From positions 46,148-110,147 of IMG/VR virus record IMGVR_UViG_3300032286_000547: a stretch of 64,000 nt of DNA. One strand, written 5' to 3'. Below, in pieces: positions 2,245 to 22,618 of this stretch. Origin of the DNA: a virus. The number at the start of each line of letters is the position of its first letter. Within the stretch, counting starts at the first letter, position 1. Made by a program: the position numbers and the translations under genes. The notes under the pieces are model-generated. The model was not told the DNA's origin and did no database searches. It saw nothing but the letters and a program-made list of their open reading frames with translations.

Positions 2245-4782
2245 ATGAGTATAATCTGTGCAGCTAATCCTTGCCCAATATTATTAAGTGCGTCCTGTGT
2301 ATTTTATGAAGGACCTAACTTAGTATGTATTGGTATAAATACTAATGAAACTATTGAATCTGCATTACAAAAGATAAACAATAGACTTTGTTCTGGTGCT
2401 GGTGCTGATGGAACTAGTGGTACTTCTGGTACCAGTGGTACGTCAGGCACAACAGGTACTAGTGGAACATCTGCCACTTCAGGAACTTCAGGTACCACAG
2501 GTACTAGTGGAAGTTCTGGAACCAGTGGCACATCTGCTACTAGTGGTACTACTGGGACTAGTGGTACATCCGCTACATCTGGAACAAGTGGAAGCTCAGG
2601 AGTACAAGGTGATCTTTATAGAACAACATCAACTAATTGTCTTACATTAGGTGACTCAGGAACATTTACTGTTGCTACAGGATTGTCATACACTCCTGGA
2701 CAGTCTATTGTTATTTCATATAATGCATTCAATTATCAAGAATGTATTGTTATTACATACAATCACATTACAGGAGAATTAGTTTTCAGTGTTCCTACAG
2801 TAGTTGTTGGTTCAGGTAATTATTGTTCATGGGATATAAACTTAGAAGGTGCAGTAGGAGGAAATGGTTCTAATGGTACATCTGGTACGTCTGGATCTGC
2901 AGGAACATCTGGTAGTACAGGTACAAGCGGTACTTCTGGAAGTAGTGGAACTACAGGAACCTCTGGAACTAGTGGTACAAGTGGCACCTCTGGTACTACA
3001 GGAACTAGTGGAACATCAGGTACTGCTGGTACAACAGGAACATCAGGAACTAGTGCTACTAGTGGAACAAGTGGATTGAATGGTTCTTCAGGAGCTGCTA
3101 TAGCTAACTGGTTTGCAAGTTATTCTAATAATGCAAATCAACCTATAATAGCTGCAAATACACCTACAGTAGTTACATATAATACAACAGAAATAGCAAA
3201 TGGTATTGTTCTAGACTTTGGTCAACAGATTAGATATGCACATGCTGGTGTATATGAATTTGGATATTCTTTACAAGTAGAAAAAACAGGTGGAATAAGT
3301 ACAGATTTAGAGATATGGGTTAGAAAGAATGGTAATAACATTGTTAGAACAGATTCATATTTAACTATTGCAACTAATGGTGTAATACAATTACCATATG
3401 TATCTTTTATATTAGACCTACAAGCTAATGATTATTTAGAGATTGTATTTTCTTCTTCAAATCCAAATGTTCAATTAACAGCTAAAGCTGCTAAAGTTGC
3501 TCCATACAGTGCACCTGCTGCACCTTCTGTTATTGTTGTAACAAAACAAATAGGTGTAAGTGTAGGAAGTACATCTGGTACAAGTGGAACTACTGGTACA
3601 AGTGGAACCACTGGAACATCAGGGACTTCTGGAACTAGTGGTACGTCTGCTACTAGTGGAACCACTGGTACTTCTGGTACCTCTGCAACAAGTGGTACTG
3701 CTGGAACTTCTGGAACTACAGGTACTGGAGGAACCTCTGGTACATCTGGAACTTCAGCCACTAGTGGAACTTCAGGAATATCAGGAAGCTCTGGAACATC
3801 TGCTACATCAGGAACATCAGGATATTCAGGAGATAAATACGCAACAACTTCTTCTACATGTTATACAATTCAAGCACCTGGTGGCACAGGTACTATTACT
3901 ATTGGTACAGCACTATCTTATACATTAGGACAAAGTATAATTATAACTTATTCAGGCGATGCTTTTAAACATAATGAAGCTATTGTTACAGCATATAACC
4001 CAGCCACTGGTGTTTTAAGTTTTGAAGTGACAGGTCAAACTGGTTCAGGATTTTATTGTTCATGGTTTGTTAACCTTGATGGTGCTACAGGAGGAGATGG
4101 ATCTCATGGTACATCAGGTACTAGTGGTTCATCATCTACTAGCGGATCTTCAGGAACTACAGGAACTTCTGGTACATCAGGTACAACTGGTACTTCAGGG
4201 ACTTCAGCAATTAATGGAACTAATGGAACATCAGGAACATCTGGCTCAAGTGGTACTTCAGGTACATCTGGAACAACAGGTACAAGTGGTACAAGTGGAA
4301 GCAGCGGATCTTCAGGCACCTCTGGCTCTAGTGGGACTACTGGTACTTCTGGTACAACTGGTACTAGCGGAACAAGTGGTTCTAGTGGCTCTAGTGGCTC
4401 TAGTGGTACGTCTGGAACATCAGGTACAACAGGTACATCAGGTACAAGTGCTGTAGATGGATCTAGTGGAACTTCAGGATCTAGTGGAGTATCTGGAGCA
4501 GGAGGATCAATTAAAAGTATAAACTTAGTTTCTACAAATACTAATGCAGGTTCTACAGCAAGTACAGATTATTTTTATTTTGGTTCAAACACAATAAACA
4601 TTACATTACCAACAGCAGTGGGTAATGATAATTATTACACAATAAAGAATGTAGGAACAGGTGTAATAACAATCAACACTACATCCTCACAAACAATAGA
4701 TGGAAGTTTAACAGCTCCAATAAAAGTTCAATATTTATCATTAACATTAATTAGCGATGGTGCTAATTGGAATATTATATAA
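2245..4782 (+). CDS. Collagen-like (G-T-S)n fibre protein with duplicated beta domains and a central C1q/TNF-like domain
   Basis: Four long G-X-Y tracts with X/Y almost all Thr/Ser; two copies of a GD.Y.TTS...GSG.YCSW..NL.GA.GG.G domain. Confidence 0.7.
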   Translation: MSIICAANPCPILLSASCVFYEGPNLVCIGINTNETIESALQKINNRLCSGAGADGTSGTSGTSGTSGTTGTSGTSATSGTSGTTGTSGSSGTSGTSATSGTTGTSGTSATSGTSGSSGVQGDLYRTTSTNCLTLGDSGTFTVATGLSYTPGQSIVISYNAFNYQECIVITYNHITGELVFSVPTVVVGSGNYCSWDINLEGAVGGNGSNGTSGTSGSAGTSGSTGTSGTSGSSGTTGTSGTSGTSGTSGTTGTSGTSGTAGTTGTSGTSATSGTSGLNGSSGAAIANWFASYSNNANQPIIAANTPTVVTYNTTEIANGIVLDFGQQIRYAHAGVYEFGYSLQVEKTGGISTDLEIWVRKNGNNIVRTDSYLTIATNGVIQLPYVSFILDLQANDYLEIVFSSSNPNVQLTAKAAKVAPYSAPAAPSVIVVTKQIGVSVGSTSGTSGTTGTSGTTGTSGTSGTSGTSATSGTTGTSGTSATSGTAGTSGTTGTGGTSGTSGTSATSGTSGISGSSGTSATSGTSGYSGDKYATTSSTCYTIQAPGGTGTITIGTALSYTLGQSIIITYSGDAFKHNEAIVTAYNPATGVLSFEVTGQTGSGFYCSWFVNLDGATGGDGSHGTSGTSGSSSTSGSSGTTGTSGTSGTTGTSGTSAINGTNGTSGTSGSSGTSGTSGTTGTSGTSGSSGSSGTSGSSGTTGTSGTTGTSGTSGSSGSSGSSGTSGTSGTTGTSGTSAVDGSSGTSGSSGVSGAGGSIKSINLVSTNTNAGSTASTDYFYFGSNTINITLPTAVGNDNYYTIKNVGTGVITINTTSSQTIDGSLTAPIKVQYLSLTLISDGANWNII

Positions 4783-4784
4783 TT

Positions 4785-5135
4785 ATGGCATATACACCAG
4801 TATCCCCTTCGTCTTATTTTGATTTAGTATCAGCAGCAAGTACAAATCCAACTGTTATTAAAGCAAGTGCTGGAACAGTAAATGGTTGGTACATTTATAA
4901 TTCAAATGGTTCACCAAGAAAAGTTGCTTTTCATAATATAGCTACAACACCAACAGCTGGTTCAGGAGTGGTAATAGCTTTAGTGATACCTCCTTTATCA
5001 GCAGCTAACGTTTCACTTCCTGATGGTATAACATTTACAACAGGAATTTCAATAACAACTGTGACAGGATTAGCTGAATCAGATGCAACAGCTGTTGCGG
5101 TAAATGATCTAATAATTAACATATTTTATAAATAA
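4785..5135 (+). CDS. Small beta-rich virion/fibre-associated protein
   Basis: ATG 4785 (MAYTPVS) just after the fibre stop; in fibre operon. Confidence 0.5.
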   Translation: MAYTPVSPSSYFDLVSAASTNPTVIKASAGTVNGWYIYNSNGSPRKVAFHNIATTPTAGSGVVIALVIPPLSAANVSLPDGITFTTGISITTVTGLAESDATAVAVNDLIINIFYK

Positions 5136-5139
5136 TATC

Positions 5140-5451
5140 ATGGCAAATTTAAACCCTACAAACGTAATTACTTATCCATTAAATTGGGAAGCAAAATCTA
5201 TAGAGATAACAGTTAATGCATTTCCATTATTTCCTCAAACAGTTGAGGTATTTTGGAAACTAATTGGAGATTCAAATTCATTCAGTGGCTCTACAACAAT
5301 ACCAAACAGTGTTGTATCTCAATGGGGTACAGATGACGCTGTGATACAATCTTATGTATTACAACAATTAGGATTGTCAGAAGCATTAGTGCCTACAGTT
5401 AATGAACCAGTTATTACAGAAGAACCGACAACAGAAGAACCTATAGTATAA
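5140..5451 (+). CDS. Hypothetical protein, possibly fibre chaperone/accessory
   Basis: 103 aa ORF tightly packed between fibre genes. Confidence 0.45.
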   Translation: MANLNPTNVITYPLNWEAKSIEITVNAFPLFPQTVEVFWKLIGDSNSFSGSTTIPNSVVSQWGTDDAVIQSYVLQQLGLSEALVPTVNEPVITEEPTTEEPIV

Positions 5452-5452
5452 T

Positions 5453-7417
5453 ATGGCACTAAAGTATTGGTATGTAGCAGGTAATGGAAGTTCAAACTTC
5501 AATACAGCAGGGGTGTGGTATAATGGACCTGGAGGCACAGGTGGCACTACAACTACGCCTACTGCTGCTGATGATGCTATTGTTAATGCTGCTTCAGGTA
5601 GTGGTACATTAACTATTACAGCTACTGCAACTATTAATAGTTTAAATACTAAGACTTTTACAGGGACATTAGCTGGAACAAACGCACTAAATATAACAAC
5701 TACAACTTTACCAAGTGATAATTATGTACTTCAATTAGGAGGAAATCATACATATAGTGGTACTATAACTTTTAATACTACACTTGATCTTGGTTCATAT
5801 ACTTTATATATAAATTGTAATGGTATATTCCATAAAGGAAATATGACATTTAATTCTACAACAGTAAATGCTGAATGGTATAGTTATGATGATATTAATA
5901 GTAATCTTGTACCATTAAGAATGACAGGTGCTTTTGGATTAACAAAAGGATATGTTGATTGCAATGAATTATATGCAGCAAGTATTTCTACATCTAATTC
6001 AAATTTTAGAGGAATTTATGTAGATGATATTTATTTATCAGGATCAGGAACATTATTAGTTGCAACAACTCAAACAGGATTAAGTTGGAATTTAACTAAT
6101 TCAATTCATCTTACAAATACAACAGCAACTGCTAAAGCAATTTCATTTTCAGGAGTTGCTTATGCTCCAAATTTATATATAGAAGGTTCAGGAGCAAGTT
6201 CTACAACTATAACTGTTGCAGTTGCAACAGATGATTATCCAAATGTAATAGTATCAAAAACACAGGGAACATTTCTTTTTGGTACAAGTTATATAAGAGA
6301 CCTTACATTTATAGAAGGATCTACAGTTACTTGGGCAGGAACATCAAATTTAACAGTTCATGGGAATGTTACTTTGTGTAATTCTATGTCTATAACAACA
6401 AGTAATGCTTTAATATTTCAAGGACCTAATTTAGGTGTTGATAATCAAACTTTAACTACTTTTGGAAAAACATTTACAGGAACTTTATCTATTAATGATA
6501 CAGGTTATAATTCTTTAAATCTTACTATAAATGGAAATTATTTAACTACAGGAACTATAACTATAACTGCAGCAAATATAGTAACTTTTAATAATTCTAT
6601 ATCATCAAGTAATTCAATAAGTATAAATGGTTCTTCAACAGGTGCATTTCCAACTGTTGATTTTAATGGTGGAATATTAACAGCTACAACTTTGTCTATA
6701 ACAGATGCATTTGTTTATTTAAATAACAGCTTTTTATCAGGTGGATTATCTTTATCTACAGGTTCATTACAGCTTCTTACTAATTCTGTACATAGTTTTT
6801 TCACATTTACATCATCTTCATCTACTAATGTTAGGTCAATTTTCTTAGGTAATAATACAACTATAAATATAAGAGGAAATGTTGCAAATAGTTGGAATAC
6901 TTCTCAAGGTTTAGCACAAGGTGTTTTACTTTTTAATGCAGGAACATCAACAATAAATATAATAGATAATACATCAAGTGCAGCTGTTAGTTTTCAAACA
7001 GGAGGAGTTAGTTTTTATAATATTCATTTAAATAGGTCAAATAATTCAATAAATCCTCCTCAAATTACTTTTACAGGAGGTTTGTATTGTGTAAATTTTA
7101 GAGACTTTACTGTAATGCCCGCAGGAGTTTTTAATTATATTGTTTTTGGTGGTGGAACTCCTATAGTTTTTTCTGATACATTTCAAGTTGGTAATGACAT
7201 TAATCCAACTTATATACTCTCGTCAAGTACAACTCCTGTTACTATAACTAAACTTAATCCAGGATTAGTTATATGTCCAAGATTATCACTTTATAATATA
7301 AATGCTTCTCAAACAAATACTTTTTATGCAATAAAAGGTTCTACTGATAATGGTGGGAATAATCAATGGATATTTAACACACCACCAAGAAGATTAAGTT
7401 CTCTTGGTGCAGGATAA
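5453..7417 (+). CDS. Beta-helix-like, Thr/Ser/Asn/Gly-rich adhesin or tail spike
   Basis: 654 aa, repeated short strands such as GTLTIT and GNLTING, very few charged residues; resembles autotransporter passenger repeats. Confidence 0.6.
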   Translation: MALKYWYVAGNGSSNFNTAGVWYNGPGGTGGTTTTPTAADDAIVNAASGSGTLTITATATINSLNTKTFTGTLAGTNALNITTTTLPSDNYVLQLGGNHTYSGTITFNTTLDLGSYTLYINCNGIFHKGNMTFNSTTVNAEWYSYDDINSNLVPLRMTGAFGLTKGYVDCNELYAASISTSNSNFRGIYVDDIYLSGSGTLLVATTQTGLSWNLTNSIHLTNTTATAKAISFSGVAYAPNLYIEGSGASSTTITVAVATDDYPNVIVSKTQGTFLFGTSYIRDLTFIEGSTVTWAGTSNLTVHGNVTLCNSMSITTSNALIFQGPNLGVDNQTLTTFGKTFTGTLSINDTGYNSLNLTINGNYLTTGTITITAANIVTFNNSISSSNSISINGSSTGAFPTVDFNGGILTATTLSITDAFVYLNNSFLSGGLSLSTGSLQLLTNSVHSFFTFTSSSSTNVRSIFLGNNTTINIRGNVANSWNTSQGLAQGVLLFNAGTSTINIIDNTSSAAVSFQTGGVSFYNIHLNRSNNSINPPQITFTGGLYCVNFRDFTVMPAGVFNYIVFGGGTPIVFSDTFQVGNDINPTYILSSSTTPVTITKLNPGLVICPRLSLYNINASQTNTFYAIKGSTDNGGNNQWIFNTPPRRLSSLGAG

Positions 7418-7421: not shown

Positions 7422-7455
7422 AAAAAAGAAGCTCCTAACTAAGGAGCTTTTTTAT
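7422..7455. terminator. Bidirectional intrinsic terminator
   Basis: AAGCTCCT-aacta-AGGAGCTT flanked by A and T runs between convergent genes. Confidence 0.75.
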
Positions 7456-10401
7456 TTCATCTATCACCATCTCTGGTGTTATGCTCTTCTGACATTCAAA
7501 CTGTCTCTCTGTTCCTTTATGAACAGGACACCAGTCCCAATCTCCTTTATCAAATTTATACTGTGGATCATTCCAACAACCGTGGCATACTCGGTTGTTT
7601 GTCACTCTATGGCATTTAAATTCGTGATCTGCATCAGTGAAGTTAGCAATCATTATCACTGGCACATCTAGTGCCCATGCTAACCAACTAAGCCCACTAG
7701 ATAGTCCTATAAAGAATCTACTATTGTATATAACACTCATGGTTGCTGACATACTTTTATCAGACAATGGTTGACAGTTATCAAATGGATTATCTTCTAG
7801 TGATGTATTGATAACTTTGTATCCTTCTCCATGTAAGTAGTTAATCACTTCTTGCCATGCTTCTCTGGTCCAGAACTTACATCCTGCTGTACTATTAGTA
7901 GCTATAGCAACTTGTCTCATTGCAAGATGCACTCTGCTGTTTACAATCCTTGGTTTGATTTCTTTATAAGGAAGACCTAGAATGTTTGTAGCTGTCTGCT
8001 GTAATGGTATAGTGTTTGGAAGAACAGGTTCTTTGTTTTCATTATAGAACCAACCAATCTTATACATTGCATAGATGTTATTCACTGTAGCACCTGGCTC
8101 AACAAACTCTAGCATTGGATATTCTTTTTCAAACAAGAAGTTCTTGAATGTACTAACAATCACTTCACAGTTGTGTGCACATCTAAACTCTTCTACGTAT
8201 GGTATCCAAGCTATTGTATCTCCTAAAGAAGAACTATCGAATGCAATATAAACTCTTCTACCATCTAGATTTAAAAGTTTATCATACACCTTCTCTCCAT
8301 CTTTATACACCACAGTCTTCCACTGTGTATAATACTCTCTGTTTAGTCTTATCCAGTGATTACATTTGATTGTGTCACTATGAACCAACACATCACCATC
8401 ATAAAACTCTACACGAAAGTCACTAGTAGATGTTCCTGTTATCTCCAAGAATGGTTGTCCAACGAAGTGTTGTGTTATATTCCAATCATTTACACTGTTT
8501 TTGTGTGGAATAACGGACATTGCTTTCTTATATAGATTCAAATTATTCTTAGCAAAGAATATAGATGGATTATCAAGTGGCATAGGATAATTGTTAGGAG
8601 ATGTTAACATATCTCTTATCTGTGGTACTATCATAATAGGGTTTAGGTTTCTTATATAATCAGTGAACATGTCATAATATTGAATAAGGTTTCTAGCTAG
8701 TATAGGTTTGCCATAACTAATGGCTTCTCTAAGAACAAGAGGATTACATTCCCATGTAGAGTTAAACATAAACAAGTCTGCAGCTTTCATAAATAAATCT
8801 GTATCATTTCTCTCTCCCCATACAGTAACATTATCAGGAACATTGTTCATTAATGGTTCCCAATAGTCTTTGAAGTTCCCAGCTTGGTTACCTACAAAGT
8901 GAAACTCTACATCTGGTATCTGTCTAGCTGCTTCTAATCCTTCTCCCTGGTTCTTTCCTCTGGTCCAAAGTCCTATGTTTACAACATGTTTCTTTGTTAC
9001 ATCCATTCCAAGAGTTATTTGTGCAGCAGTTTGTTCAGCTTTACTTACATGAGTATAATCTATAGGATATTCAATCACTTCTTTATATCCATCAAGGTTA
9101 GCAAATGTATCTACATGATAAGGTGTACAGAATGCATATGCATCTGGTGTAAACATCTTAGTCTCTGGTACAAAAGAAACATCATGACATGTCTCAACTA
9201 TTCTATATGTTCTATCATCAGCATACAGTCTAGTGATCATCTCTCTATCCATTCTCTCAGACATTTCATCTATATGAATGATGTCTGGTCTGAATTCATT
9301 TATGATGCAAAATAGTTCTGTTTTATCCTCATATAATGTGAATACAGGTACAATATCTAAGATTTGGTTCCTTTGTACAACAAAATCCACACTATAACAT
9401 TGATATTCCACTACAATTATTTCTACATCTGTATAATCTTTCAATGTTTGTATTCTTTTTAGAAGAAACTGAGGCATACCACCTGTTGACAGATGGGGAG
9501 CAAGGAACATTATTTTAATAGGTTTAGACATTTTAGACATTAGTTTAGACATTGCTACAGGATCTTTTTCTCCATGTAAGAAGAATAATTGATCCTCACT
9601 AGCTGGTAACTTAAACCATGATTCTAAATAACTTCCCCAGTTATCTTCATTATATATTCTATCAAACTTATCAAGGCTAGCATTAGTGTATATATAAGGA
9701 AGACTATCTAAGAACTTATGTTTCCATAACAACACATTCACTATTGTCTCTTCGTGATAGGGAGCATAGTATTGTGGATCTTTTAGTATCTTTGGATGAT
9801 TGCACATCCAACTCCACTCATTTAAGAATGGTATAGTGTTCTGACCAGCTACAAAATAACCAGTTTGTCTATACTTGTCTCTAATAGATTGATCTACATT
9901 AAACAATTCACATGCTGGAGCTTCAAGACTCTTGTGTAAGTTCTCTCTTCCAATTACAACACCTCTACCATTCATTAATAGATAATCATATATACCTTCT
10001 GTGAAATACGGAAACTCAGAATCTGTAGGATAGTAGTTGAATATTCTATCTACATACTTAGTTGCTACACTGTCAGAATCTACATAACAGATTGTCTCAG
10101 CAAATCTTTCAAGAGCATCTTTAACTATAAGAGGTCTTTGTATTAATAGATTGTATATTCTAGAATCATCTCTATCTATATAAGATGATTTTGGTACATC
10201 TTCTACATCACATTTCCAGTAGACAGTGTTAGCTCCAGGAACCTCACTATAATCATTTAACATGTACACTGTAATTGGTACATCACTAAACTGTTGAATA
10301 CTTTCTACAGCCATACATACAGTGCTGTAATAAGATGCATTTGCATATAAAACATACATTCTATCTGCTTTTCTATTTGTGTGTGTAAAACTAGAAGACA
10401 T
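7435..10401 (-). CDS. Three-domain glycosyltransferase: GT-A (DSD) + GT4-like GT-B + TibC/Aah-like protein O-glycosyltransferase
   Basis: YVDSD motif; STGG...KNQ...ADLF..S.WE.NPLVLREA..YGKP; SLGDTIAW plus CHGCWND...WCPVH...FEC iron-finger-like cysteines. Confidence 0.8.
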   Translation of the reverse strand: MSSSFTHTNRKADRMYVLYANASYYSTVCMAVESIQQFSDVPITVYMLNDYSEVPGANTVYWKCDVEDVPKSSYIDRDDSRIYNLLIQRPLIVKDALERFAETICYVDSDSVATKYVDRIFNYYPTDSEFPYFTEGIYDYLLMNGRGVVIGRENLHKSLEAPACELFNVDQSIRDKYRQTGYFVAGQNTIPFLNEWSWMCNHPKILKDPQYYAPYHEETIVNVLLWKHKFLDSLPYIYTNASLDKFDRIYNEDNWGSYLESWFKLPASEDQLFFLHGEKDPVAMSKLMSKMSKPIKIMFLAPHLSTGGMPQFLLKRIQTLKDYTDVEIIVVEYQCYSVDFVVQRNQILDIVPVFTLYEDKTELFCIINEFRPDIIHIDEMSERMDREMITRLYADDRTYRIVETCHDVSFVPETKMFTPDAYAFCTPYHVDTFANLDGYKEVIEYPIDYTHVSKAEQTAAQITLGMDVTKKHVVNIGLWTRGKNQGEGLEAARQIPDVEFHFVGNQAGNFKDYWEPLMNNVPDNVTVWGERNDTDLFMKAADLFMFNSTWECNPLVLREAISYGKPILARNLIQYYDMFTDYIRNLNPIMIVPQIRDMLTSPNNYPMPLDNPSIFFAKNNLNLYKKAMSVIPHKNSVNDWNITQHFVGQPFLEITGTSTSDFRVEFYDGDVLVHSDTIKCNHWIRLNREYYTQWKTVVYKDGEKVYDKLLNLDGRRVYIAFDSSSLGDTIAWIPYVEEFRCAHNCEVIVSTFKNFLFEKEYPMLEFVEPGATVNNIYAMYKIGWFYNENKEPVLPNTIPLQQTATNILGLPYKEIKPRIVNSRVHLAMRQVAIATNSTAGCKFWTREAWQEVINYLHGEGYKVINTSLEDNPFDNCQPLSDKSMSATMSVIYNSRFFIGLSSGLSWLAWALDVPVIMIANFTDADHEFKCHRVTNNRVCHGCWNDPQYKFDKGDWDWCPVHKGTERQFECQKSITPEMVIDEIKKLLS

Positions 10402-12488: not shown

Positions 12489-13502
12489 ATGGCTATACCA
12501 TCTAGACAGATAGGCTGGGGAACAGAAGAAAATCTGTTATGGCAAATCTCTAAGCAATTAGAGAGATTAACACAGGTGACAGGAAATAGTGTAAGTGGAT
12601 CTCAAACACTTGCACAAACACTTGTTACTGGAAACAATACAGGTGGGAATGATATACTATTAAATAGTACTGATGCAATACAGTTAGAAAATAATTCATC
12701 ACTTAGAAAAGGAACTTATGATTTTGGTCAAGGTGGTGGTGTTTCACGTATATGTGGTGTAGACTATGAAGATATGTGGCAAGGTGGAATTAGACACGTA
12801 TTTGATTCCAATGGATTTATAAGAAATTCAACTAACTGCTTTAATATTATACCTAATTCAAGTTTTGATGATACTTTAAGATTTAAAATTGGTTCATTTT
12901 GGACTTTGGATGATGGTACTACTTATGAATGTACTAATGCAACAACAGGAGCTGCTGTTTGGCAATTATATTCTACACCTCCTAAGTATAAGGTGTTCAC
13001 AGCTTTATTAACACAGAGTGGAGGAAATAATCCTGACACTATACCAGGCAACGGTGGAACGCTTGATGCTGGATATACTTATTTAATAATAGACAATCCA
13101 GATAATTATGATTTAACATTATATGGTGCACCAAATAACTTACCTGGAACATATTTTATTTGTGCCAATTCTATTCTTAATCTTCCTTATACTAACAGTC
13201 TACAAATAGGAGTTAATTATGGTGCTCCAGTAGCAACTGTATTAGAGAACACTATTGGGAATGTTTGGTTTACTTATGATGGTGTTGGTAACTATTCAGT
13301 TAAATCTAGTAATTTATTTTTAGAAAATAAAACAACACTAAGTATTAATCTAATGGGTGATGATGTAGGTACTGGTTATATATGTTTAGGATATATTAAT
13401 ACTACAGAATCATTAGGTATTACAACAGGTACAGAAATAGGCGGCTCACAAGACAATGTTTTAACATGGAAAACACCAATAGAAATAAGAGTTTATAATT
13501 AA
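12489..13502 (+). CDS. Virion appendage protein with N-terminal module A
   Basis: MAIPSRQIGW...NLLWQISKQLE shared with 13513; beta-rich C-terminus. Confidence 0.55.
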   Translation: MAIPSRQIGWGTEENLLWQISKQLERLTQVTGNSVSGSQTLAQTLVTGNNTGGNDILLNSTDAIQLENNSSLRKGTYDFGQGGGVSRICGVDYEDMWQGGIRHVFDSNGFIRNSTNCFNIIPNSSFDDTLRFKIGSFWTLDDGTTYECTNATTGAAVWQLYSTPPKYKVFTALLTQSGGNNPDTIPGNGGTLDAGYTYLIIDNPDNYDLTLYGAPNNLPGTYFICANSILNLPYTNSLQIGVNYGAPVATVLENTIGNVWFTYDGVGNYSVKSSNLFLENKTTLSINLMGDDVGTGYICLGYINTTESLGITTGTEIGGSQDNVLTWKTPIEIRVYN

Positions 13503-13512: not shown

Positions 13513-14295
13513 ATGGCAATACCTAGTAGACAAATAGGATGGAGTGGAAGAGCTAACTTACTTTGGCAGATATCTAAACAATTAGAATATCTAACATGTG
13601 TAGCAGCTGGTGGATGTACAACTACTACATCTACTACCACTATTGCTCCTACCACCACCACAACAACTACAATTTGTGTAGACTTTATTAATAGTATTGT
13701 TATTTCTGGTGGTTCATACACTGCTGCTAATGGAACTTATACAAGAGATACTCCTTCAGGATCTTTTACATTAACAGGTGGAGGTGGTGCTATATTCTTT
13801 GGTGGAGATGCTTGGTATATTTTTAATGCTACAATTGGAAATGTTGCAATAAATACATCTACACTAGGAACTGGAACATGGGAACCTTTTGCTCCTGGAA
13901 ATTCATCAGGAATTACTGCAGAGTATTTTTATTATACTTGTCCAACCACTACAACCACAACTAGTAGTAGTTCTTCAACAACTTCTACTACTAGCACTAC
14001 TACAACTGTAGCTCCAACTACTACTACAACAACTACAGTTATATATTCATTTAATGTTACGCAATGTTGTGGAGGAACTGGTATTACAGTATATTCAGCT
14101 TCACCATCAATAACAGTAGGTGCATATTTATATACAAACTCAGGACTAACTGTTCCGTTTGTTAATGAACAAGGTGACGGTGCTCCTAACAGAATTGGTT
14201 TTGAGAATACTTGTGATGTTTCTTTTAGTGACGCATTTTTTACATATAATACAGGATACGTTTATACCATTAATGGTGGCGGTGGTTGCGACTAA
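13513..14295 (+). CDS. Thr-rich (mucin-like) virion appendage protein, module A
   Basis: Same N-terminus as 12489; two poly-Thr/Ser tracts. Confidence 0.6.
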   Translation: MAIPSRQIGWSGRANLLWQISKQLEYLTCVAAGGCTTTTSTTTIAPTTTTTTTICVDFINSIVISGGSYTAANGTYTRDTPSGSFTLTGGGGAIFFGGDAWYIFNATIGNVAINTSTLGTGTWEPFAPGNSSGITAEYFYYTCPTTTTTTSSSSSTTSTTSTTTTVAPTTTTTTTVIYSFNVTQCCGGTGITVYSASPSITVGAYLYTNSGLTVPFVNEQGDGAPNRIGFENTCDVSFSDAFFTYNTGYVYTINGGGGCD

Positions 14296-14337: not shown

Positions 14338-15354
14338 ATGAAAGATTTAAAATTTGTACAAGCTTGCCCAAGCGATATTTATTATACATGGCAAGTGAAC
14401 CTTTGGATGGAAAGCCTAAAAGAAATAGGACACTCTGACAAAGCAATCAATCTTATATTCACTCCTAAAGGAAGAGAGAATAGAGACAAATGGAAACAAA
14501 TAGAAGACCTATATCCAGAAGCTGAGTTTCATTACTACGAGGATGAGGATGATTTAAATCGATTAATTGGAATCTATATTCCTGTACTTAGACCATATGT
14601 TCTTTGGAAACATTTCAAGAAGCATCCAGAGCTAAGTGATAAAGCAATCTTCTATTGTGACTCTGACATTCTATTCATGAAAGATTTCAATGTAGATCAG
14701 TTCTTAGAAGATGAAGTGTGTTACTTATCAGATACAAATAGCTACATCAATGCTAAATATTTTGATAGTAAGGTGAATCAAGTGTTACCAGAGAAACTGG
14801 AAGAATATAAAGGTAGAGACATCCTTGCAGAGATTGCAAGTGTTGTAGGAATAAGCAGAGAAATAGCTGAGGCTAACAATGATCATTCAGGAGGAGCACA
14901 ATATCTATTAAAGAATGTAGATGGTGACTTCTGGAGTAAGGTGATGAATGATTGTATTCTTATTAGAACCTATTTACAAACAGTGAATAGAGAATTCTTT
15001 AAAGATGAAAATGCTGGATACCAAAGTTGGTGTGCTGATATGTGGGCTGTTCTTTGGAACCTATGGTTTAGAAACCAAGAAACAAAGGTGGTACCTGAAA
15101 TGGCATTTGCATGGGCTACAGATCCTATATCAAAGCTTGATACACATACAATCTTTCATAATGCAGGAATAGTTTCTGAAACAGGAAATGGTTACCCAGC
15201 CTTTTACAAAGGCAAATATCACATGGGTACTGATCCAACAAAAGATCCTAACCTAGATATGATTCTTAATGACGAACAATCAAAAAAATATTGTACTTGG
15301 TTCTATGCAACTAAACTGAATGAAATTAAAAACAAATATAACCTAAACTATTAA
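14338..15354 (+). CDS. GT-A fold glycosyltransferase resembling plant peptidyl-Ser/Hyp O-glycosyltransferases (GT96/GT95)
   Basis: YYTWQ, YIPVLRP, FYCDSDILF (DxD), GGAQY, WCADMWA in the order expected for that group. Confidence 0.65.
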   Translation: MKDLKFVQACPSDIYYTWQVNLWMESLKEIGHSDKAINLIFTPKGRENRDKWKQIEDLYPEAEFHYYEDEDDLNRLIGIYIPVLRPYVLWKHFKKHPELSDKAIFYCDSDILFMKDFNVDQFLEDEVCYLSDTNSYINAKYFDSKVNQVLPEKLEEYKGRDILAEIASVVGISREIAEANNDHSGGAQYLLKNVDGDFWSKVMNDCILIRTYLQTVNREFFKDENAGYQSWCADMWAVLWNLWFRNQETKVVPEMAFAWATDPISKLDTHTIFHNAGIVSETGNGYPAFYKGKYHMGTDPTKDPNLDMILNDEQSKKYCTWFYATKLNEIKNKYNLNY

Positions 15355-15370: not shown

Positions 15371-15634
15371 ATGGGAAGCATTAATACAAGACCTTTAAAG
15401 GCTTATGTTAGATTCGATGGATCTGGCAGAATAGTTGCAGGAAGTTTAGTTCTGAGAAAGAACAAACCTAAAGTTGGTAAATGGAAAGAGATTCCAGCAT
15501 ATGAGTGCTGTAATCCTACAACCACTACTACCACTACAGCTGCACCAACAACAACAACAAGTACAACTGTAGCTCCAACTACCACAACCACAACAACTGC
15601 GAGAGCAACAACAACAACTACAACAACAAGATAA
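15371..15634 (+). CDS. Thr-tailed small protein, N-terminal module B
   Basis: LKAYVRFDGSGRIV...ECCN then about 38 aa of mostly Thr. Confidence 0.6.
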   Translation: MGSINTRPLKAYVRFDGSGRIVAGSLVLRKNKPKVGKWKEIPAYECCNPTTTTTTTAAPTTTTSTTVAPTTTTTTTARATTTTTTTR

Positions 15635-15636: not shown

Positions 15637-16113
15637 ATGGCTAGAAGTAATAACAATAATAAGCTTAAAGCTTTTGTACGTTTTGATGGTTCAGGACGTA
15701 TTGTACCAAGTAGTTTAATTGTACAAGCATTTAAACCGAAGGTAGGTAACTATCAAGAAATAGATGCTAAAGAGTGTTGTAATTACACAACAACTACAAC
15801 AACAACTTTAGCACCAACAACAACCACTAGTACTACGGTAGCCCCTACTACAACTACAACTACTACTGTAGCTTTAATTCCACTTACTTTTACAGTTTGT
15901 TGTGGAGAAGCTGAAGAAACTTTATATGCAACATCAAGTCCAGTAGTGCCTGGTGTTTATTTATATGAAAACGCGGCTGGTACAATTCCTGCTGTTTTAA
16001 GCGGAAATGTTGTGATCGGTGAAATCGATTGTCCTTTTGAAGAAAATATAGGAATATCTACAAATGAATCTGGATTAGTTTTGAGTATTACAAACCCTAT
16101 TAACTGTGCTTAA
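15637..16113 (+). CDS. Thr-stalk protein, module B plus head domain
   Basis: Paralogous N-terminus to 15371; C-terminal domain similar to that of 13513. Confidence 0.6.
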   Translation: MARSNNNNKLKAFVRFDGSGRIVPSSLIVQAFKPKVGNYQEIDAKECCNYTTTTTTTLAPTTTTSTTVAPTTTTTTTVALIPLTFTVCCGEAEETLYATSSPVVPGVYLYENAAGTIPAVLSGNVVIGEIDCPFEENIGISTNESGLVLSITNPINCA

Positions 16114-16831: not shown

Positions 16832-16832
16832 T

Positions 16833-17402: not shown

Positions 17403-17453
17403 TTAAAAAACATTTTTTACTTTTACTGATTAATAATAAAAACCAATTACATT

Positions 17454-17684: not shown

Positions 17685-17740
17685 TTAACATACCTGTTGG
17701 GTGACGAAAAACAGGTGTTCTCGAACAAAAGCACTTCTCT

Positions 17741-17947: not shown

Positions 17948-18503
17948 AAGACCTATAAAAAAGGCACAGAATGGATCTAAAACAGATGCTAACACTAAAA
18001 TTCAAAAGCTTAAATTAGATAATAAGTATAATAAGATTTATGCTGCTATGAAGAAAGATTCAACAGATGTTTCTAATAAAATTACATTACCTATTACTTA
18101 TAAGTCACTTAGACAAGAAACTGGTAAATCTCCTAGTGCAGAAGAATTACGTAAAAGAACATCTGAATTAAATAAAAGCTTAGTTAAACAAGGAAAAAAA
18201 GATAAAGATATTAGAAAAACTTTTGGTAATTTAGATGCTAAAGGTAGAGCTGATAATGCAATGATGACAGATAAAATGAAGAACGGTAGTGCTGTTAAGA
18301 AAAAAATGAAGAACGGTGGTTCTTTATCTGGTCTTAAAGCTTCTACTAAAAGAGTTGGTCCTTCAGATGCTAAAGGTGCTTGGACTAAAGTGCAAGAGAA
18401 AACATTAAAAGGTGCTAAAGGTAAAGCTAAACTTACAGCAGACAAACAACTTGGTGCTACTAAGATGGCCAAGAGAGGCATGAAGATTTCTAAAAAGAAA
18501 TAA
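17931..18503 (+). CDS. Lys-rich basic protein
   Basis: Recurrent KKAQNG/KMKNG motifs. Confidence 0.65.
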   Translation: MAKMIKRPIKKAQNGSKTDANTKIQKLKLDNKYNKIYAAMKKDSTDVSNKITLPITYKSLRQETGKSPSAEELRKRTSELNKSLVKQGKKDKDIRKTFGNLDAKGRADNAMMTDKMKNGSAVKKKMKNGGSLSGLKASTKRVGPSDAKGAWTKVQEKTLKGAKGKAKLTADKQLGATKMAKRGMKISKKK

Positions 18504-18506
18504 GTC

Positions 18507-18953
18507 ATGAGAACTATTAAAAAAGGTCAAAAAGGAGCTATGTTAAAGCAAGCACCTAGGACAACAATAGAAGAAATCACTAGTACAAAACTAAAAGATG
18601 TTCCAAGAAGAGCAATTAATCTTGGTAAAAGATTAATTAATAATACTATTAATGATGTAAAGAATGCTACAGTGGGAGATGTTGCTAAATCATTAGTACC
18701 AACTGGTGTTAGTAAAGCTACTAAAAGATCTAATAAAAAACCAGATCGTGTATTAGCTGCTATGGCTAAAAAGAACGGTGGTAAAGTGGCTAAAGCTAAA
18801 GATGGTAAATGGATGCAGAAAGCTGCAGCTTCTATCAAACGTAGAGGAACTGCTGGTAAATGTACACCAATCACCAAACCTGGTTGTACTGGTAAGGCTA
18901 AGGCTCTTGCTAAAACATTCAAGAAGATTGCTAAATCTAATAAGAAGAAATAA
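18507..18953 (+). CDS. Lys-rich basic protein
   Basis: MRTIKKGQKG, KKNGG, AKDG motifs. Confidence 0.65.
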   Translation: MRTIKKGQKGAMLKQAPRTTIEEITSTKLKDVPRRAINLGKRLINNTINDVKNATVGDVAKSLVPTGVSKATKRSNKKPDRVLAAMAKKNGGKVAKAKDGKWMQKAAASIKRRGTAGKCTPITKPGCTGKAKALAKTFKKIAKSNKKK

Positions 18954-19621
18954 TGTCTAAGTTAAATCCTCAGAAAGCTACAGCTTATGTAGGCCCTGGT
19001 GTACTACGTAAAGGTGGTAAAATAACACCTGTTCCTAATGGTCCTCTTATTAAAAAGAAAGGTCCATATGCAGGAAGCACGTTAAAATCTGGTGGTAAGA
19101 TTAAGAAAGCTCAAGGTGGTGAATATCTTACAAAAGAAGGCAACACCTACACTTCTACTAAGAAAGTGAACACTAAGAATGGTCCTAGATACTATCAAGG
19201 AAAATCTCCTAACATGTCTTTTGCTACAGAAATAGCTTCTGAAAAAGCACGTAAAATTAATGATTCTATTCCTAAAGCAAAACTTAGTGCTAGAGCACTA
19301 GAAGTAATGAATAATAAAAATGGTGGCACTATGAGAAAGAAAGCTATGATGGGTAATAGTATATTTAAAAACAATCCTATCTATGAAAAAACTACCAAGG
19401 CTCGTGGTATGATTGGTAATATGATGGGTATACCAGGTAAACCAATTGTTAAGAATGGTGGTATGTTAAAACGTGCTGATGGTTCATATTCTAAGCGTGG
19501 ATTATGGGATAACATTCGTGCTGCAGCTAAAAAGAACAAAGCTGCTGGTAAGCCTGGTAAAAAACCTACAGCTGCTATGTTACAACAAGAACGTAAAATT
19601 AAAGCTAAATCTAAGAAATAA
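18953..19621 (+). CDS. Lys-rich basic protein
   Basis: LRKGG, LKSGG, AQGG, NKNGG, VKNGG; C-terminal GLWDNIR module; TAATG coupling at both ends. Confidence 0.65.
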   Translation: MSKLNPQKATAYVGPGVLRKGGKITPVPNGPLIKKKGPYAGSTLKSGGKIKKAQGGEYLTKEGNTYTSTKKVNTKNGPRYYQGKSPNMSFATEIASEKARKINDSIPKAKLSARALEVMNNKNGGTMRKKAMMGNSIFKNNPIYEKTTKARGMIGNMMGIPGKPIVKNGGMLKRADGSYSKRGLWDNIRAAAKKNKAAGKPGKKPTAAMLQQERKIKAKSKK

Positions 19622-19899
19622 TGGCAACTCCTGCATGGCAAAGAAAAGAAGGAAAGAATCCTTCTGGTGGTCTTAATAAGAAAGGCGTAGCATCTTACAG
19701 AAGAGCTAACCCTGGATCTAAACTTAAGACAGCTGTAACCACTAAACCTTCTAAGTTAAAACCTGGAAGTAAAGCTGCTGGTAGACGTAAGTCTTTCTGC
19801 AGTAGAATGTCAGGCATGAAGAAAAAACTTACTAGTGCTAAGACAGCAAATGATCCTAACTCAAGAATCAATAAATCTCTACGTAAGTGGAATTGTTAA
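19621..19899 (+). CDS. Basic phage protein, DUF6321-like
   Basis: GKNPSGGLN.KG..SY....PGS.LK, RRKSFC.RM, LRKWNC. Confidence 0.7.
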   Translation: MATPAWQRKEGKNPSGGLNKKGVASYRRANPGSKLKTAVTTKPSKLKPGSKAAGRRKSFCSRMSGMKKKLTSAKTANDPNSRINKSLRKWNC

Positions 19900-19917
19900 A
19901 CCTATAAATAGTAAACA

Positions 19918-20463
19918 ATGAGAACAATAAAAAAAGCTCAAACTGGAGCTAAAGTTAAAAAACCTGTAACTAAACCTAAAGAAGATAAGTATAAAGGTTT
20001 AGGTGGAGAAATTGGTAGACCTATCTTCTCTGATAAAGAACAAAGAGAAAGAAGAAAAAAATTAGGTCTTCCTACATCAAAAGCTGAAGAAAAAGCTTAT
20101 TACGAAAAAATGCGTAGAGAAGGTGCTAAGAATGGTAGAACCATGAGCAAAGCTAAAAATGGAACATCATTAGGAATGAAATCTGTTAAAGCTGGATTTG
20201 ATAAAAACCCTGGTGTAACAAGAGCTGATATTATTACAGCTGCCACAAAGAAGGCTCAAAATGGTAAAATATTACCTATTAAAAAAAGTAAAGTAAGAAG
20301 TAATCCAGCATTTGAGTTAGAATATCAAAAATTCAAACATAAACAAGATATGGATAGAATGAAACTTGATAAAGAAAGAAAAGCAAAAGAAGCATCTTAT
20401 CCAAAATCAAACAAAGCTAAATCTGGTTCTACAGTTAAAAAATGCAAATATGGCTGCAAGTAA
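19918..20463 (+). CDS. Lys-rich basic protein
   Basis: MRTIKKAQTG, AKNG x2, KKAQNG, AKSG, CKYG. Confidence 0.65.
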   Translation: MRTIKKAQTGAKVKKPVTKPKEDKYKGLGGEIGRPIFSDKEQRERRKKLGLPTSKAEEKAYYEKMRREGAKNGRTMSKAKNGTSLGMKSVKAGFDKNPGVTRADIITAATKKAQNGKILPIKKSKVRSNPAFELEYQKFKHKQDMDRMKLDKERKAKEASYPKSNKAKSGSTVKKCKYGCK

Positions 20464-20617
20464 ATCAATGACTTCTGGTAAAGCTAAGAAGAGTGGTAAG
20501 CCTAGAATGGCTCCTAAGGTTGCTCCTCCTAATCCAATCAATGGGAACTATATGAAGGAAGCTGGAGACTCTGGTACCAAAAGACCGTTATTCAAAAGAA
20601 AACGTATATCAAAATAA
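20450..20617 (+). CDS. Small basic protein (55 aa)
   Basis: ATG 20450 MAASKSMTSG...; last gene before terminator. Confidence 0.55.
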   Translation: MAASKSMTSGKAKKSGKPRMAPKVAPPNPINGNYMKEAGDSGTKRPLFKRKRISK

Positions 20618-20618
20618 G

Positions 20619-20645
20619 AAAGCCCCTTGATGGGGCTTTTTTTAT
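20619..20645. terminator. Bidirectional terminator at the convergence of the two gene blocks
   Basis: AAAGCCCC-ttgat-GGGGCTTT plus T run. Confidence 0.8.
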
Positions 20646-21193
20646 TTAACTATAATAAGAAGTTTGTTATGATGTGTCTGGTAGAATTCCTTACAAGGAT
20701 AGTTTAGAGCTTTGATCTCTTCCATCATTTTATGTTCATCTAACTGTGCAGCATGTAAATCTTCTATGATGTATATACCACCTTCTTTTAGATATGGATA
20801 CAGAGTTTTGAAACTTGTAACTATATGCTCACCATAATGTGATCCATCATCAACAATAAGATCATAATCTGCTCCATAAGTTTTGATGCATTCTTCTAAA
20901 TGCTCAGGATTGTTTTGATCTCCAATGAATACAGACACTCCTTCTGTCTCAAAACTCTTAGCTTCTGGATTGATATCATAACCTATTAGTTCAATATCAG
21001 GAAAGTATTCTTTCCACAACTTAAGTGATGCTCCAGGAAACCTAGGATCTGCTACACCTATCTCTAACATCTTCACATGTCCTTTAGATAGTTCATCTAA
21101 TAATTCATGGTAAAACACTGTATAACCATGACCATAATTCATTGTACCTTTATCTGTACCTATTCTATTTGCTATTTCTGTTAATCTGTCCAT
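20642..21193 (-). CDS. Class I SAM methyltransferase, sugar O-methyltransferase-like (MycE/TylE-type motifs)
   Basis: TDK....H.Y, LEIGV, SL..W..YFP, GDQ, DDGSH, GG.Y.IED. Confidence 0.75.
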   Translation of the reverse strand: MDRLTEIANRIGTDKGTMNYGHGYTVFYHELLDELSKGHVKMLEIGVADPRFPGASLKLWKEYFPDIELIGYDINPEAKSFETEGVSVFIGDQNNPEHLEECIKTYGADYDLIVDDGSHYGEHIVTSFKTLYPYLKEGGIYIIEDLHAAQLDEHKMMEEIKALNYPCKEFYQTHHNKLLIIVK

Positions 21194-21854
21194 AATAATC
21201 ATTTAAAAATTTAGGAGTTAATTCAATTGTTCCTATTCTATTATCTAATACTTTATCTGCCTGAGCTAATATAACTTCGTTAGGTTGATGACCCATTCCA
21301 GAAATATGAAGTGTTCCCATTCCCCATCTATATATCATTGTATGTTTAAGCTTTGATTCATATATCTTACCATTTTTATGGAATGTAATATCTGCATCTT
21401 CTCCAATACTTGTATCAGGCCATTCTATTCTATCTAAATAAGCTTTAGTATAAATGTTTCCATTGTTTATATTAGAATTTTCTCTTTCAAATATATTATT
21501 TACAAAGAAATACATTCCTTCACTTCTATAGACATCATATCCAGGATTGTTCTCTATATCTGTACTAGCATTCTTAAGGGCCCAAGGTGTTAATAGATCA
21601 TCATCATCTAATCTATAGATATATTCTCCTTTACACTGTTGGTATCCCCACTGAAGCTTAGCTGATATAGAAGGAAATCTTTCTTTGTGGTTGATTATTC
21701 TCACTCTTGGGTGATCAAATATATAGTCCACCTCAGCATTATCATTAATAATCACCATCTCACTCTCTGGTGGGTTTTCTTGTGCAAGAAAAGATTCTAT
21801 TGCCTCTTCTAATAGATGAGGTCTTTTATAGGTAAGAGTTAAAATTGATATCAT
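21165..21854 (-). CDS. GT2 family glycosyltransferase
   Basis: ISILTLTYKR..LL..AI.S.L.Q, IIND, RLDDDD. Confidence 0.85.
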   Translation of the reverse strand: MISILTLTYKRPHLLEEAIESFLAQENPPESEMVIINDNAEVDYIFDHPRVRIINHKERFPSISAKLQWGYQQCKGEYIYRLDDDDLLTPWALKNASTDIENNPGYDVYRSEGMYFFVNNIFERENSNINNGNIYTKAYLDRIEWPDTSIGEDADITFHKNGKIYESKLKHTMIYRWGMGTLHISGMGHQPNEVILAQADKVLDNRIGTIELTPKFLNDYYGQINRNSK

Positions 21855-22618
21855 TTTGGTTGTATTAGTCCGTTATCAAAATAAGTTGGTAAAATTGTCC
21901 ATTCTTTACAATACATATCTTCCCATGATGGTGGTCCTTCTGGACCAAACCATGTCTCTGGTGCAATAACAATCTTACCAGGGTGTCTAGATAGATAAGC
22001 TGCCCACCAACTGAATGATGAGTTTGAAATTATGAAGTGATGGCACATAGCCATTATCCACAATTGCTCATGTACTTTCCATCCTTCTAGATAGATTGCG
22101 TTAGGTATGTTTAAATTTTCTTTACACCATGGAATATCATCACTAGCAACAATGTATTGTTTCGAAGGAACCAAGGTTAATGCTTTGTGTATGTATTCTG
22201 GTGACACTGTAGGATGGTAGTTTGGATAATGAAGGTAATCTCCTCTTCGAACATTTATCACTGTCACTTCTGTATTAAATATGACAGGAATATCTGTACG
22301 TATTCTATCTATGAATTCTTTTGTAGGAGAGAATAAAGATTTAACTGCTTCGCTATATCTATCAAAATGATTTTCACTTTGAAAGTATCCATTATATACA
22401 GTTGCTTCACTATCTTTAACTTCATTAGGATGATCTATATATAAGTCTAGTTTTCTAAATACATTATCTACAAAATCAGCCATATGTCCCACTTGATTAG
22501 CAGGAACAATAAGTTGTCTATTCTGATCTAATGCTTTAGCATAAGCATTGGCTATCATGAACAGATTATTACCTAGTCTTCCTGCTAAAGCAGGCATTAT
22601 GAAATTCTTGTTTATCAT
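21851..22618 (-). CDS. GT11 alpha-1,2-fucosyltransferase-like protein
   Basis: GRLGN.LF, GYFQS, VRRGDY, SDD..WC, NSSFSWWAAYL. Confidence 0.85.
   Translation of the reverse strand: MINKNFIMPALAGRLGNNLFMIANAYAKALDQNRQLIVPANQVGHMADFVDNVFRKLDLYIDHPNEVKDSEATVYNGYFQSENHFDRYSEAVKSLFSPTKEFIDRIRTDIPVIFNTEVTVINVRRGDYLHYPNYHPTVSPEYIHKALTLVPSKQYIVASDDIPWCKENLNIPNAIYLEGWKVHEQLWIMAMCHHFIISNSSFSWWAAYLSRHPGKIVIAPETWFGPEGPPSWEDMYCKEWTILPTYFDNGLIQPK

Follow-up and report, generated by a model that had tools for sequence, protein, structure and literature searches.

To our knowledge, phage virions are usually treated as unglycosylated, the sole well-studied exception being a group of mycobacteriophages; in one of them, Che8, C-terminal sites of the capsid and tail-tube proteins are reportedly modified. 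In cellular organisms, the collagen-like GXT repeats of BclA, on the exosporium of Bacillus anthracis, are O-glycosylated and capped with methylated anthrose. Virion O-glycosylation has been attributed to mycobacteriophages Che8, Corndog and Myrna (Freeman et al. 2023, as cited in PMC11256854 and PMC12582341), while TibC and Aah are cytoplasmic protein-Ser glycosyltransferases of autotransporters (PMC4358343). We have analysed a stretch of 64,000 nucleotides, hereafter the window, that covers bases 46148-110147 of IMGVR_UViG_3300032286_000547, a 110,147-bp IMG/VR viral contig with direct terminal repeats, and in which an earlier note, made from the letters of the DNA, had proposed a phage-encoded system for the O-glycosylation of virions. 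Our results make it probable that glycosyltransferases (GTs) encoded in this window O-glycosylate the phage's own Ser/Thr-repeat late proteins.

The genes on which that proposal was built are all present, at the coordinates collected in Table 1. The six GT domains that it had distributed over four genes, together with a sugar O-methyltransferase, are borne out by Pfam, by TIGR04414, by AlphaFold2 (AF2) folds and by matches to the PDB entries 3SSM and 8IA9. The dominance of Ser and Thr in the late proteins is likewise real, with fractions of 0.24-0.38, but the five proteins counted were too few, at least six more being encoded outside the window. Three of the enzymes point to proteins or protein-borne glycans as their targets, as had been predicted, namely the TibC/Aah member, the GT8-like enzyme and the MycE/TylE-type O-methyltransferase.

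Table 1. Genes and domains of the proposed glycosylation system and its candidate substrates, numbered from the first base of the window
Feature	Position	Strand	Basis
129-aa protein, Cys-containing N-terminal domain common to the following fibre	1840..2229	+	sequence comparison; kept upstream of fibre in relatives
845-aa collagen-like tail fibre, G-T-S-type triplets	2245..4782	+	Pfam Collagen 3.8e-38; PHROG tail-fibre families down to 2.5e-44
654-aa Ser/Thr-rich (0.27) beta-solenoid protein	5453..7417	+	Atlas model
988-aa glycosyltransferase: GT-A (residues 1-306) + GT4 (~340-600) + TibC/Aah-type protein O-glycosyltransferase (663-988)	7435..10401	-	
TibC/Aah-family (BAHT) domain with iron-finger motif	7435..8415	-	PDB 4RAP, TIGR04414
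N-terminal GT-A domain with invariant Y-x-D-S-D	9484..10401	-	retaining GT6/GT8-like fold, AF2 + Foldseek
337-aa protein, N-terminal anchor (MAIPSRQIGW...) common to the following poly-Thr protein	12489..13502	+	homologues upstream of 338-aa GT in relatives
260-aa protein, four poly-Thr/Ser tracts, Ser+Thr 0.33; proposed 338-aa GT substrate	13513..14295	+	
338-aa GT8-like retaining GT-A glycosyltransferase (phrog_4417)	14338..15354	+	PHROG match 5e-55, AF2 model
87-aa protein, conserved N-terminal anchor then four T7 tracts, Ser+Thr 0.37	15371..15634	+	homologues after GT in relatives
158-aa protein, same anchor as 87-aa protein, three T7 tracts, C-terminal domain, Ser+Thr 0.24	15637..16113	+	
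186-aa S-adenosylmethionine-dependent sugar O-methyltransferase, MycE/TylE family	20642..21202	-	PDB matches
229-aa GT2, proposed poly-Thr chain extender	21165..21854	-	Pfam 2e-14
257-aa GT11 (alpha-1,2-fucosyltransferase family), proposed capping step	21851..22624	-	Pfam PF01531

Judged by its sequence, the 988-aa protein carries in its C-terminal third a genuine protein-serine O-glycosyltransferase of the TibC/Aah family. Residues 663-986 reach 258.3 bits with the NCBIfam model TIGR04414 (hepto_Aah_TibC), whose cut-off is 200 (E 1.1e-76), and TibC itself matches the same third with an E-value of 1.4e-52; the match sets in at residue 62 of TibC, that to the NCBIfam model at its position 30, and the N-terminal beta-barrel of TibC comprises residues 1-97. 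Key TibC residues were taken from the structure paper (PMC4358343) and read off the alignment. Asp110 (catalytic base), Thr226, Lys230 and Trp305 (sugar-binding) are aligned in the window protein and invariant in 62 phage homologues, as are all four iron-finger cysteines (C339, C342, C358 and C370), and Pro300 is replaced by Ser in 61/62 homologues, as in Aah. Within the same polypeptide, residues 467-581 match Pfam Glycos_transf_1 (1e-10) and residues 830-927 Pfam Glyco_transf_9 (7e-6), and no signal sequence or membrane domain was seen by inspection. Residues 1-306 had no Pfam or PDB sequence match, gave an empty tblastn of isolate phages and did not match, in BLASTP, the GT6 domain fused in P0229, a relative of the 338-aa enzyme. 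Their AF2 model, from 41 homologues (alignment A3, in which Y-x-D-S-D is invariant), has a GT-A fold with a predicted local distance difference test (pLDDT) of 88.5; the best Foldseek matches are GT6 enzymes (GTA/GTB, alpha-1,3-GalT) with E 4e-8 and a template-modelling (TM) score of ~0.45-0.5, and profile comparison with the 338-aa family gave a weak match (probability 37%, E 3.5e-4).

The GT9 relationship of the TibC-like domain bears directly on a different explanation, according to which the GTs would remodel glycans of the host envelope (lipopolysaccharide (LPS), capsule, S-layer or glycoproteins), as in a superinfection block, and the Ser/Thr tracts would be unglycosylated flexible linkers. 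GT9 does include LPS heptosyltransferases (weak matches), and GT2, GT4 and GT11 enzymes of phages are typical of polysaccharide pathways, with weak NCBIfam matches here to WcaA, PglI, EpsE and TuaG. Yet the GT9-type domain is specifically of the TibC/Aah type, iron finger included, scoring 258 bits with that family vs 27 bits with LPS heptosyltransferase I.

TibC-like domains at 57-86% identity occur on at least 183 viral contigs, and in relatives its position is invariably the distal end of the fibre module, in convergent orientation to the fibre genes. The gene product is modular: forms of ~700 aa are devoid of the GT-A domain, forms of 1150-1260 aa have an extra N-terminal methyltransferase (Methyltransf_23 or FkbM) or GT25 domain, and one relative has an additional GT9 gene at this locus. 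APS-kinase-like, cytidylyltransferase-like and sulfotransferase genes stand between GT and fibre gene in several relatives. At L057:8972-11464, and also in L062 and L106, such genes, together with one for an unknown 288-aa protein, separate the multi-domain GT from the fibre (Sulfotransfer_3, 3e-18), an arrangement that suggests sulfation of the same glycan or protein in these relatives. In the window, the convergent beta-helix gene and 988-aa gene are separated by a gap of 17 bp (7417-7435). An TACCTTTG element lies ~20 nt upstream of the start codon of the 988-aa gene (10402-10583), its enrichment in the window being not clear; a promoter-like motif upstream of the same gene, TANNTTTG, was rejected, as its 103 matches vs 84±10 expected showed no clear enrichment in the window.

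The comparison across genomes that had been proposed beforehand as a check revealed that both presumed initiating enzymes co-vary with Ser/Thr-repeat proteins. The clade to which the phage belongs is represented by a related portal gene on 485 IMG/VR contigs; 21 near-complete genomes of the clade were picked via the portal gene or the giant protein encoded upstream, blind to their GTs. The TibC-like gene is present in nine of the 21, and five G-(S/T)-(S/T) triplets in a row, searched for as the DNA pattern (G-[ST]-[ST])x5, were found in 9/9 genomes with that gene vs 0/12 without it (Fisher p ~3e-6, computed by hand as 1/C(21,9)); the reversed control pattern gave zero matches. Since genomes that have neither can carry large Ser/Thr-rich fibres without collagen triplets, such as a 1153-aa protein of genome G012 with Ser+Thr 0.29, the TibC-like gene tracks collagen-like repeats specifically. 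This association holds for enzymes as little as 50% identical and for differing domain architectures, and the unrelated Microcystis cyanophage Mel-JY01 encodes a 1227-aa FkbM-GT-TibC fusion adjoining a collagen-like stretch (Ser+Thr 0.40, Gly 0.25). The 845-aa fibre of the window has Ser+Thr 0.38 and Gly 0.19, and the 129-aa protein encoded before it is, from its shared N-terminal domain, probably a fibre-attachment module. Two other measures were not retained: a Ser/Thr threshold of >=0.28 on open reading frames (ORFs) near the TibC-like gene was passed at 37/59 loci, many of the others being incomplete, and the collagen-pattern test was used instead; counts of T7 tracts relative to the TibC-like gene (medians ~21 and ~10) overlapped widely and were not taken as evidence.

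These data do not sustain the pairing of the TibC-like enzyme with its beta-helix neighbour that the earlier note had drawn, inasmuch as the enzyme goes with the collagen-like fibre and the neighbour is hypervariable, with a sequence homologue in 1/80 related loci. The Atlas model of this 654-aa protein (predicted TM 0.74) resembles TPS/FHA proteins (TM 0.58-0.63) and the passengers of pertactin and SPATEs (0.46-0.50), and its composition is ordinary for a beta-helix. It is likely a distal fibre or receptor-binding protein, and possibly a second substrate of the TibC-like enzyme.

The second presumed initiating enzyme is the 338-aa protein, which matched no Pfam family at E up to 10, Glyco_transf_8 included, and returned noise in PDB sequence and profile searches. 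Its AF2 model, derived from 52 diverse homologues in which Y106, D108 and D110 are invariant, is a very confident GT-A fold (pLDDT 96.8), with VIA Z values of 14.2 to glycogenin, 14.1 to AgtA, 13.8 to LgtC and 12.9 to GlyE, UGGT also falling in the range 12.9-14.2. Glycogenin, Skp1 AgtA, UGGT and GlyE mostly act on proteins or protein-carried glycans. On the strength of the model, the enzyme is a fold relative of GT8, the nearest solved fold, as distinct from a demonstrated CAZy GT8 member. A likeness to plant GT95/GT96 enzymes, suggested previously, could not be established: the HPAT model PF23452 matched 1/52 family members at the noise level of E 0.013 and did not match the window protein at E up to 10, one Atlas neighbour cluster of the family contained 10% of members with PF23452, and the matches of the fold search included no solved structure of GT95 or GT96. 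The phrog_4417-type family is almost entirely viral, with 2713 proteins at E<1e-5 and 778 clusters at 50% identity, and some of its members are fused to Methyltransf_24, GT2, GT6 or Gly_transf_sug domains. In its own clade the gene is core, present in all 21 near-complete genomes, and in relatives homologues of the anchor-plus-stalk proteins are encoded on either side of it. Two loci on contigs labelled GVMAG (L221 and L223) encode 422-428-aa homologues with no long poly-S/T neighbour.

We propose that this enzyme is a poly-Thr O-glycosyltransferase, on account of the company it keeps. Runs of at least seven Ser/Thr occur in 10/114 ORFs of the genome vs 1/853 ORFs (0.12%) in 67 unrelated viral loci, so these tracts, encoded by mixed synonymous codons, are more than chance. 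Beyond the window, six further proteins, encoded at contig 2310-11097, have mucin-like S/T tracts that reach 46 residues; a 390-aa protein of this group ends in a Thr-rich tail. A 2030-aa giant protein (contig 14690-20782) has six T7-8 tracts. Within the window, the gene pairs 12489-13502/13513-14295 and 15371-15634/15637-16113 share their anchors and differ in stalk and head, and to judge from their sequences they look like a mix-and-match family of appendage proteins. In distant metagenomic lineages, which were reached with two divergent members of the 338-aa family, the immediate neighbour of the family gene has a run of at least seven Ser/Thr in 9/12 cases, some on contigs of at least 300 kb; relative to the background rate this corresponds to a binomial probability <1e-12, the lineages being not strictly independent. 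The same was found in 5/7 isolates. In Enterococcus phage phiFL1A the family gene, gp51, lies between the tail chaperone genes and that for the major tail protein gp50, whose last 23 residues form a Thr/Ser tail; in Lactococcus phage 1706, Arcanobacterium phage TPWB06 and Staphylococcus phage DH5 the upstream major structural or tail protein ends in T9-T10, and in Chryseobacterium phage MA9V-3 both ORFs upstream of the gene have long S/T tracts. The two remaining isolates are Enterococcus phage nattely, with a T6 run only, two genes away, and Lactobacillus phage SAC12B, with none nearby. The coupling of the 338-aa GT to poly-Thr tracts is strong, not absolute.

Remodelling of the host envelope would leave unexplained both this co-variation of GTs with collagen-like and poly-Thr genes in unrelated viruses and the gene position between major tail protein and tail chaperones in Gram-positive siphoviruses, and we regard it as unlikely. 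The neighbourhoods also bear on the idea that the enzymes do modify proteins but outside the virion, either host proteins or non-structural phage proteins, for example in the inactivation of a host factor or defence. Such targets would suit glycogenin and Skp1 AgtA, structural relatives of the 338-aa GT that modify cytoplasmic proteins, as well as poly-Thr proteins whose place in the virion is deduced from gene position; on the other hand, the adjacent poly-Thr protein is annotated as major tail protein or is a proven structural protein in four isolates, and the tracts of this genome sit in the late structural region, including the 2030-aa giant protein. Targets of this kind therefore seem improbable to us, and O-glycosylation of the phage's own late proteins is the reading that we retain.

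Three further enzymes are encoded together on the minus strand. The 257-aa GT11 matches PF01531 with 96.6 bits (gathering score 23.9, E 2e-27) over profile positions 98-295 of 298, and a PDB search found no sequence relative. The 186-aa methyltransferase matches MycE (3SSM; E 5.2e-24, residues 7-152 vs 184-328) and demethylmacrocin O-methyltransferase (8IA9; E 1.9e-21), its match to Pfam Methyltransf_24 being weak, and it does not have the N-terminal tetramerisation domain of MycE. Over its full length, the 229-aa GT2 shares 38% identity (E 6e-38) with the middle domain of a fusion protein of 904 aa that has a phrog_4417 GT as its N-terminal domain. GT2 genes of this type occur in 17/21 clade genomes, GT11-GT2(-methyltransferase) stays together as a unit where the early operon ends in ~10 relatives, and the trio-bearing relative G005 has 26 T7 tracts and is without the TibC-like gene. 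Because of the fusion to phrog_4417, the occurrence of GT2, the conserved trio and G005, we would place GT2, GT11 and the methyltransferase in the poly-Thr pathway. A comparison of the methyltransferase with the fused Methyltransf_24 domain of P0137 gave a short motif match (E 0.004), which was rejected as a Rosetta-stone link.

Nucleotide-sugar synthesis families were found neither in the window, in line with the earlier note, nor in the whole genome, and no GmhA-type SIS_2 gene was found in the phage genome; since the genome is devoid of nucleotide-sugar synthesis genes, the sugar donors must be host-derived. The gene content also speaks to a reading in which the GTs hypermodify phage DNA, by glucosylation of the T4 type or glycan hypermodification of 5-hydroxymethylcytosine. 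Decoration of DNA with glycans by phage GTs has been reported (bioRxiv 10.1101/2023.12.21.572611); set against this, a search of 46 non-structural proteins yielded no family of hydroxymethylases, TET/5mYOX enzymes or DNA methyltransferases, DNA glycosylation is not known for TibC/Aah or GT8-like enzymes, and the co-variation with substrate genes would be left without explanation. We consider a role on DNA very improbable, and continue with the glycosylation of late proteins.

Several observations weigh against that proposal. The sugar-binding Arg286 of TibC is Thr in 61/62 phage homologues, a change that suggests a donor other than ADP-heptose. Fibre gene and TibC-like gene are neighbours, in genomes that are themselves related, so that the 9/9 vs 0/12 distribution could partly reflect one inherited cassette; moreover, the huge phage LR756504 has a standalone TibC-like gene and no Ser/Thr-rich neighbour. 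Collagen-like fibres and Ser/Thr-rich beta-helices are common in phages without GTs. On the poly-Thr side, 3/12 lineages and 2/7 isolates have no poly-S/T neighbour of the 338-aa-family gene, and 2/21 clade genomes keep the 338-aa GT without any T7 tract, their anchor protein retaining a short Thr-rich segment. The poly-Thr proteins of the window gave no PHROG or Pfam structural match, and it is from their late-region position only that we infer a virion location. Finally, the GT11-GT2-methyltransferase trio stands at the end of the early/replication operon, away from any substrate gene, a position that would favour an action on the host envelope, and close relatives of GT11 (at least 41% identity) are found in 13 viral contigs only.

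Taken as a whole, the enzyme families, their folds, the conserved catalytic residues and the genomic co-variation are observed, and from here on we infer residues, sugars, order of steps and virion location. Two cytoplasmic protein O-glycosylation modules would act, with nucleotide sugars of the host, on late and presumably virion proteins of the phage. In the first, the 338-aa enzyme would place the first sugar on Thr/Ser of poly-Thr stalks, that is, of the small anchored appendage proteins and of the other mucin-like structural proteins of the genome, after which GT2, GT11 and the MycE/TylE-type O-methyltransferase might extend, cap and methylate the chain, in this presumed order. In the second, the TibC/Aah-type domain would glycosylate Ser/Thr of the collagen-like G-T-S fibre, possibly of the beta-helix protein too, and the GT4 and GT-A domains of the same polypeptide could extend that glycan. 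The fibres would thereby acquire a coat of mucin-like or collagen-glycoprotein character.

Regarding the phage itself, proteins of 2030, 1569, 940, 4273 and 1669 aa are encoded upstream of the window, which opens with the end of the structural region (1-20.5 kb, plus strand) and continues with a replication/early block on the minus strand (20.6-54 kb, with RecA, PhoH, DnaB-like helicase, DNA polymerase and rIIA/rIIB), followed by the genes for terminase, portal and capsid proteins. The terminase shares 39% identity with its counterpart in Leptolyngbya phage Lbo-JY46, 33% with those of Cellulophaga phages phi17:2/phi4:1 and ~27% with those of crAss-like phages (cr118_1, cr10_1 and others). The designation crAss-like used in the earlier note is a loose label, only loosely supported by sequence: it can draw on the terminase identity of 27% and on the giant virion proteins (4273, 2030, 1669 and 1569 aa), but the sole match of the capsid protein is to the cyanophage Lbo-JY46. 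This nearest isolate, which served as negative control, has neither GT and no T7 tract, and a megablast of positions 7000-23000 of the window against phage records gave no match. Between the poly-Thr cluster and the minus-strand block (17931-20463, plus strand) lie five or six genes for small, very basic, Lys-rich proteins that could be internal or DNA-associated. In the early region, ARAGORN called a tmRNA gene (47895-48216, minus strand) with an unusually long tag peptide of 24 residues that ends in AA.

A broader interpretation, to which we would give about even chances, is that these data disclose two unrecognised and widespread viral protein-glycosylation systems, one with phrog_4417 as a dedicated poly-Thr O-glycosyltransferase and the other with a TibC/Aah-type enzyme retargeted to collagen-like fibres. 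The first would serve mucin-like stalks and tails in crAss-like environmental phages, in Gram-positive siphoviruses (where phiFL1A, 1706 and phages of the Sextaecvirus type would bear them on their major tail proteins), as well as in jumbo phages and perhaps giant viruses. The second would reside in modular polypeptides whose domain content, and hence glycan, varies among close relatives in the manner of O-antigen loci. If the glycosylation of late proteins proposed here holds, self-glycosylation of phages would be common, given that the family is core in the large, apparently freshwater clade (21/21; 485 portal contigs) and occurs next to poly-Thr-tailed tail proteins in Enterococcus, Lactococcus and Staphylococcus phages that can be cultivated, and the TibC/Aah family, until now one of bacterial adhesins, would come to include enzymes acting on collagen-like fibres of viruses. 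Fibres or tails coated with glycans would matter for host recognition, for resistance to proteases, for adhesion to mucus and particles, and for the recognition of therapeutic phages by antibodies. A simple sequence rule would also follow, whereby a GT gene beside a poly-Thr or G-S/T-S/T gene predicts glycosylated virion proteins from genomes, and phage-host pairs already kept in laboratories would allow a direct test. The earlier note knew of no description of such a system in crAss-like phages; our full-text search of the literature, of incomplete coverage, agreed with it and found no description of a TibC-collagen or GT-poly-Thr association in phages.

Among the systems to which this locus can be compared, TibC/TibA and Aah/AIDA-I of E. 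coli, the bacterial autotransporter heptosyltransferase (BAHT) systems, are close to the second module. The phage domain belongs to that family by sequence and keeps its catalytic Asp and iron finger, the protein has, by inspection, no signal sequence or membrane domain, and the gene adjoins a repetitive Ser/Thr-rich candidate substrate. Unlike them, it is phage-encoded and fused to GT4 and GT-A domains, with a methyltransferase or GT25 in relatives; it aligns with TibC from residue 62 on, so that most of the N-terminal beta-barrel is outside the match; and, owing to the replacement of Arg286, ADP-heptose may not be its donor. Moreover, it co-varies with collagen-like G-(S/T)-(S/T) fibres and not with autotransporter beta-helices, no autotransporter being encoded in the phage. 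By analogy, BclA resembles the proposed system in that Thr-bearing collagen-like triplets would carry the O-glycan and a sugar methyltransferase is part of the system, whereas its initiating enzymes are unrelated and the setting is a spore surface and not a virion.

For the 338-aa enzyme, the GT8 proteins glycogenin, AgtA and pneumococcal GlyE share the DxD motif and the GT-A fold (Z 12.9-14.2 over 219-229 residues), and GlyE works on a Ser-rich repeat adhesin, the serine-rich-repeat protein PsrP. Identity to these enzymes is 8-13%, with no Pfam GT8 match and an almost exclusively viral family, and GlyE, unlike the proposed initiator, extends an existing glycan. Plant HPAT (GT95) and SGT1 (GT96) are comparable to the extent that both would glycosylate repetitive tracts of hydroxy amino acids. 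Chloroviruses and mimiviruses also use cytoplasmic virus-encoded GTs to build glycans on capsid or fibril proteins, A64R of PBCV-1 reaches Z 10.8 to the 338-aa model, and two phrog_4417 loci come from contigs labelled as metagenome-assembled genomes of giant viruses; these are, in contrast, eukaryotic viruses with N-linked or atypical linkages and no close homology. The mycobacteriophages offer a parallel in concept, since phage GTs there serve the phage's own structural proteins, and phrog_4417 adjoins a major tail protein with a C-terminal Ser/Thr tail in phages of the phiFL1A type. The enzyme families (here TibC-type, and GT8-like with no Pfam model), the hosts and the lineages differ, and so do the candidate substrates, here long mucin-like poly-Thr stalks and collagen-like fibres. 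Virion glycosylation as such was already known from mycobacteriophages and giant viruses, and what this locus would add to it are new enzyme families, new types of substrate and new phage lineages.

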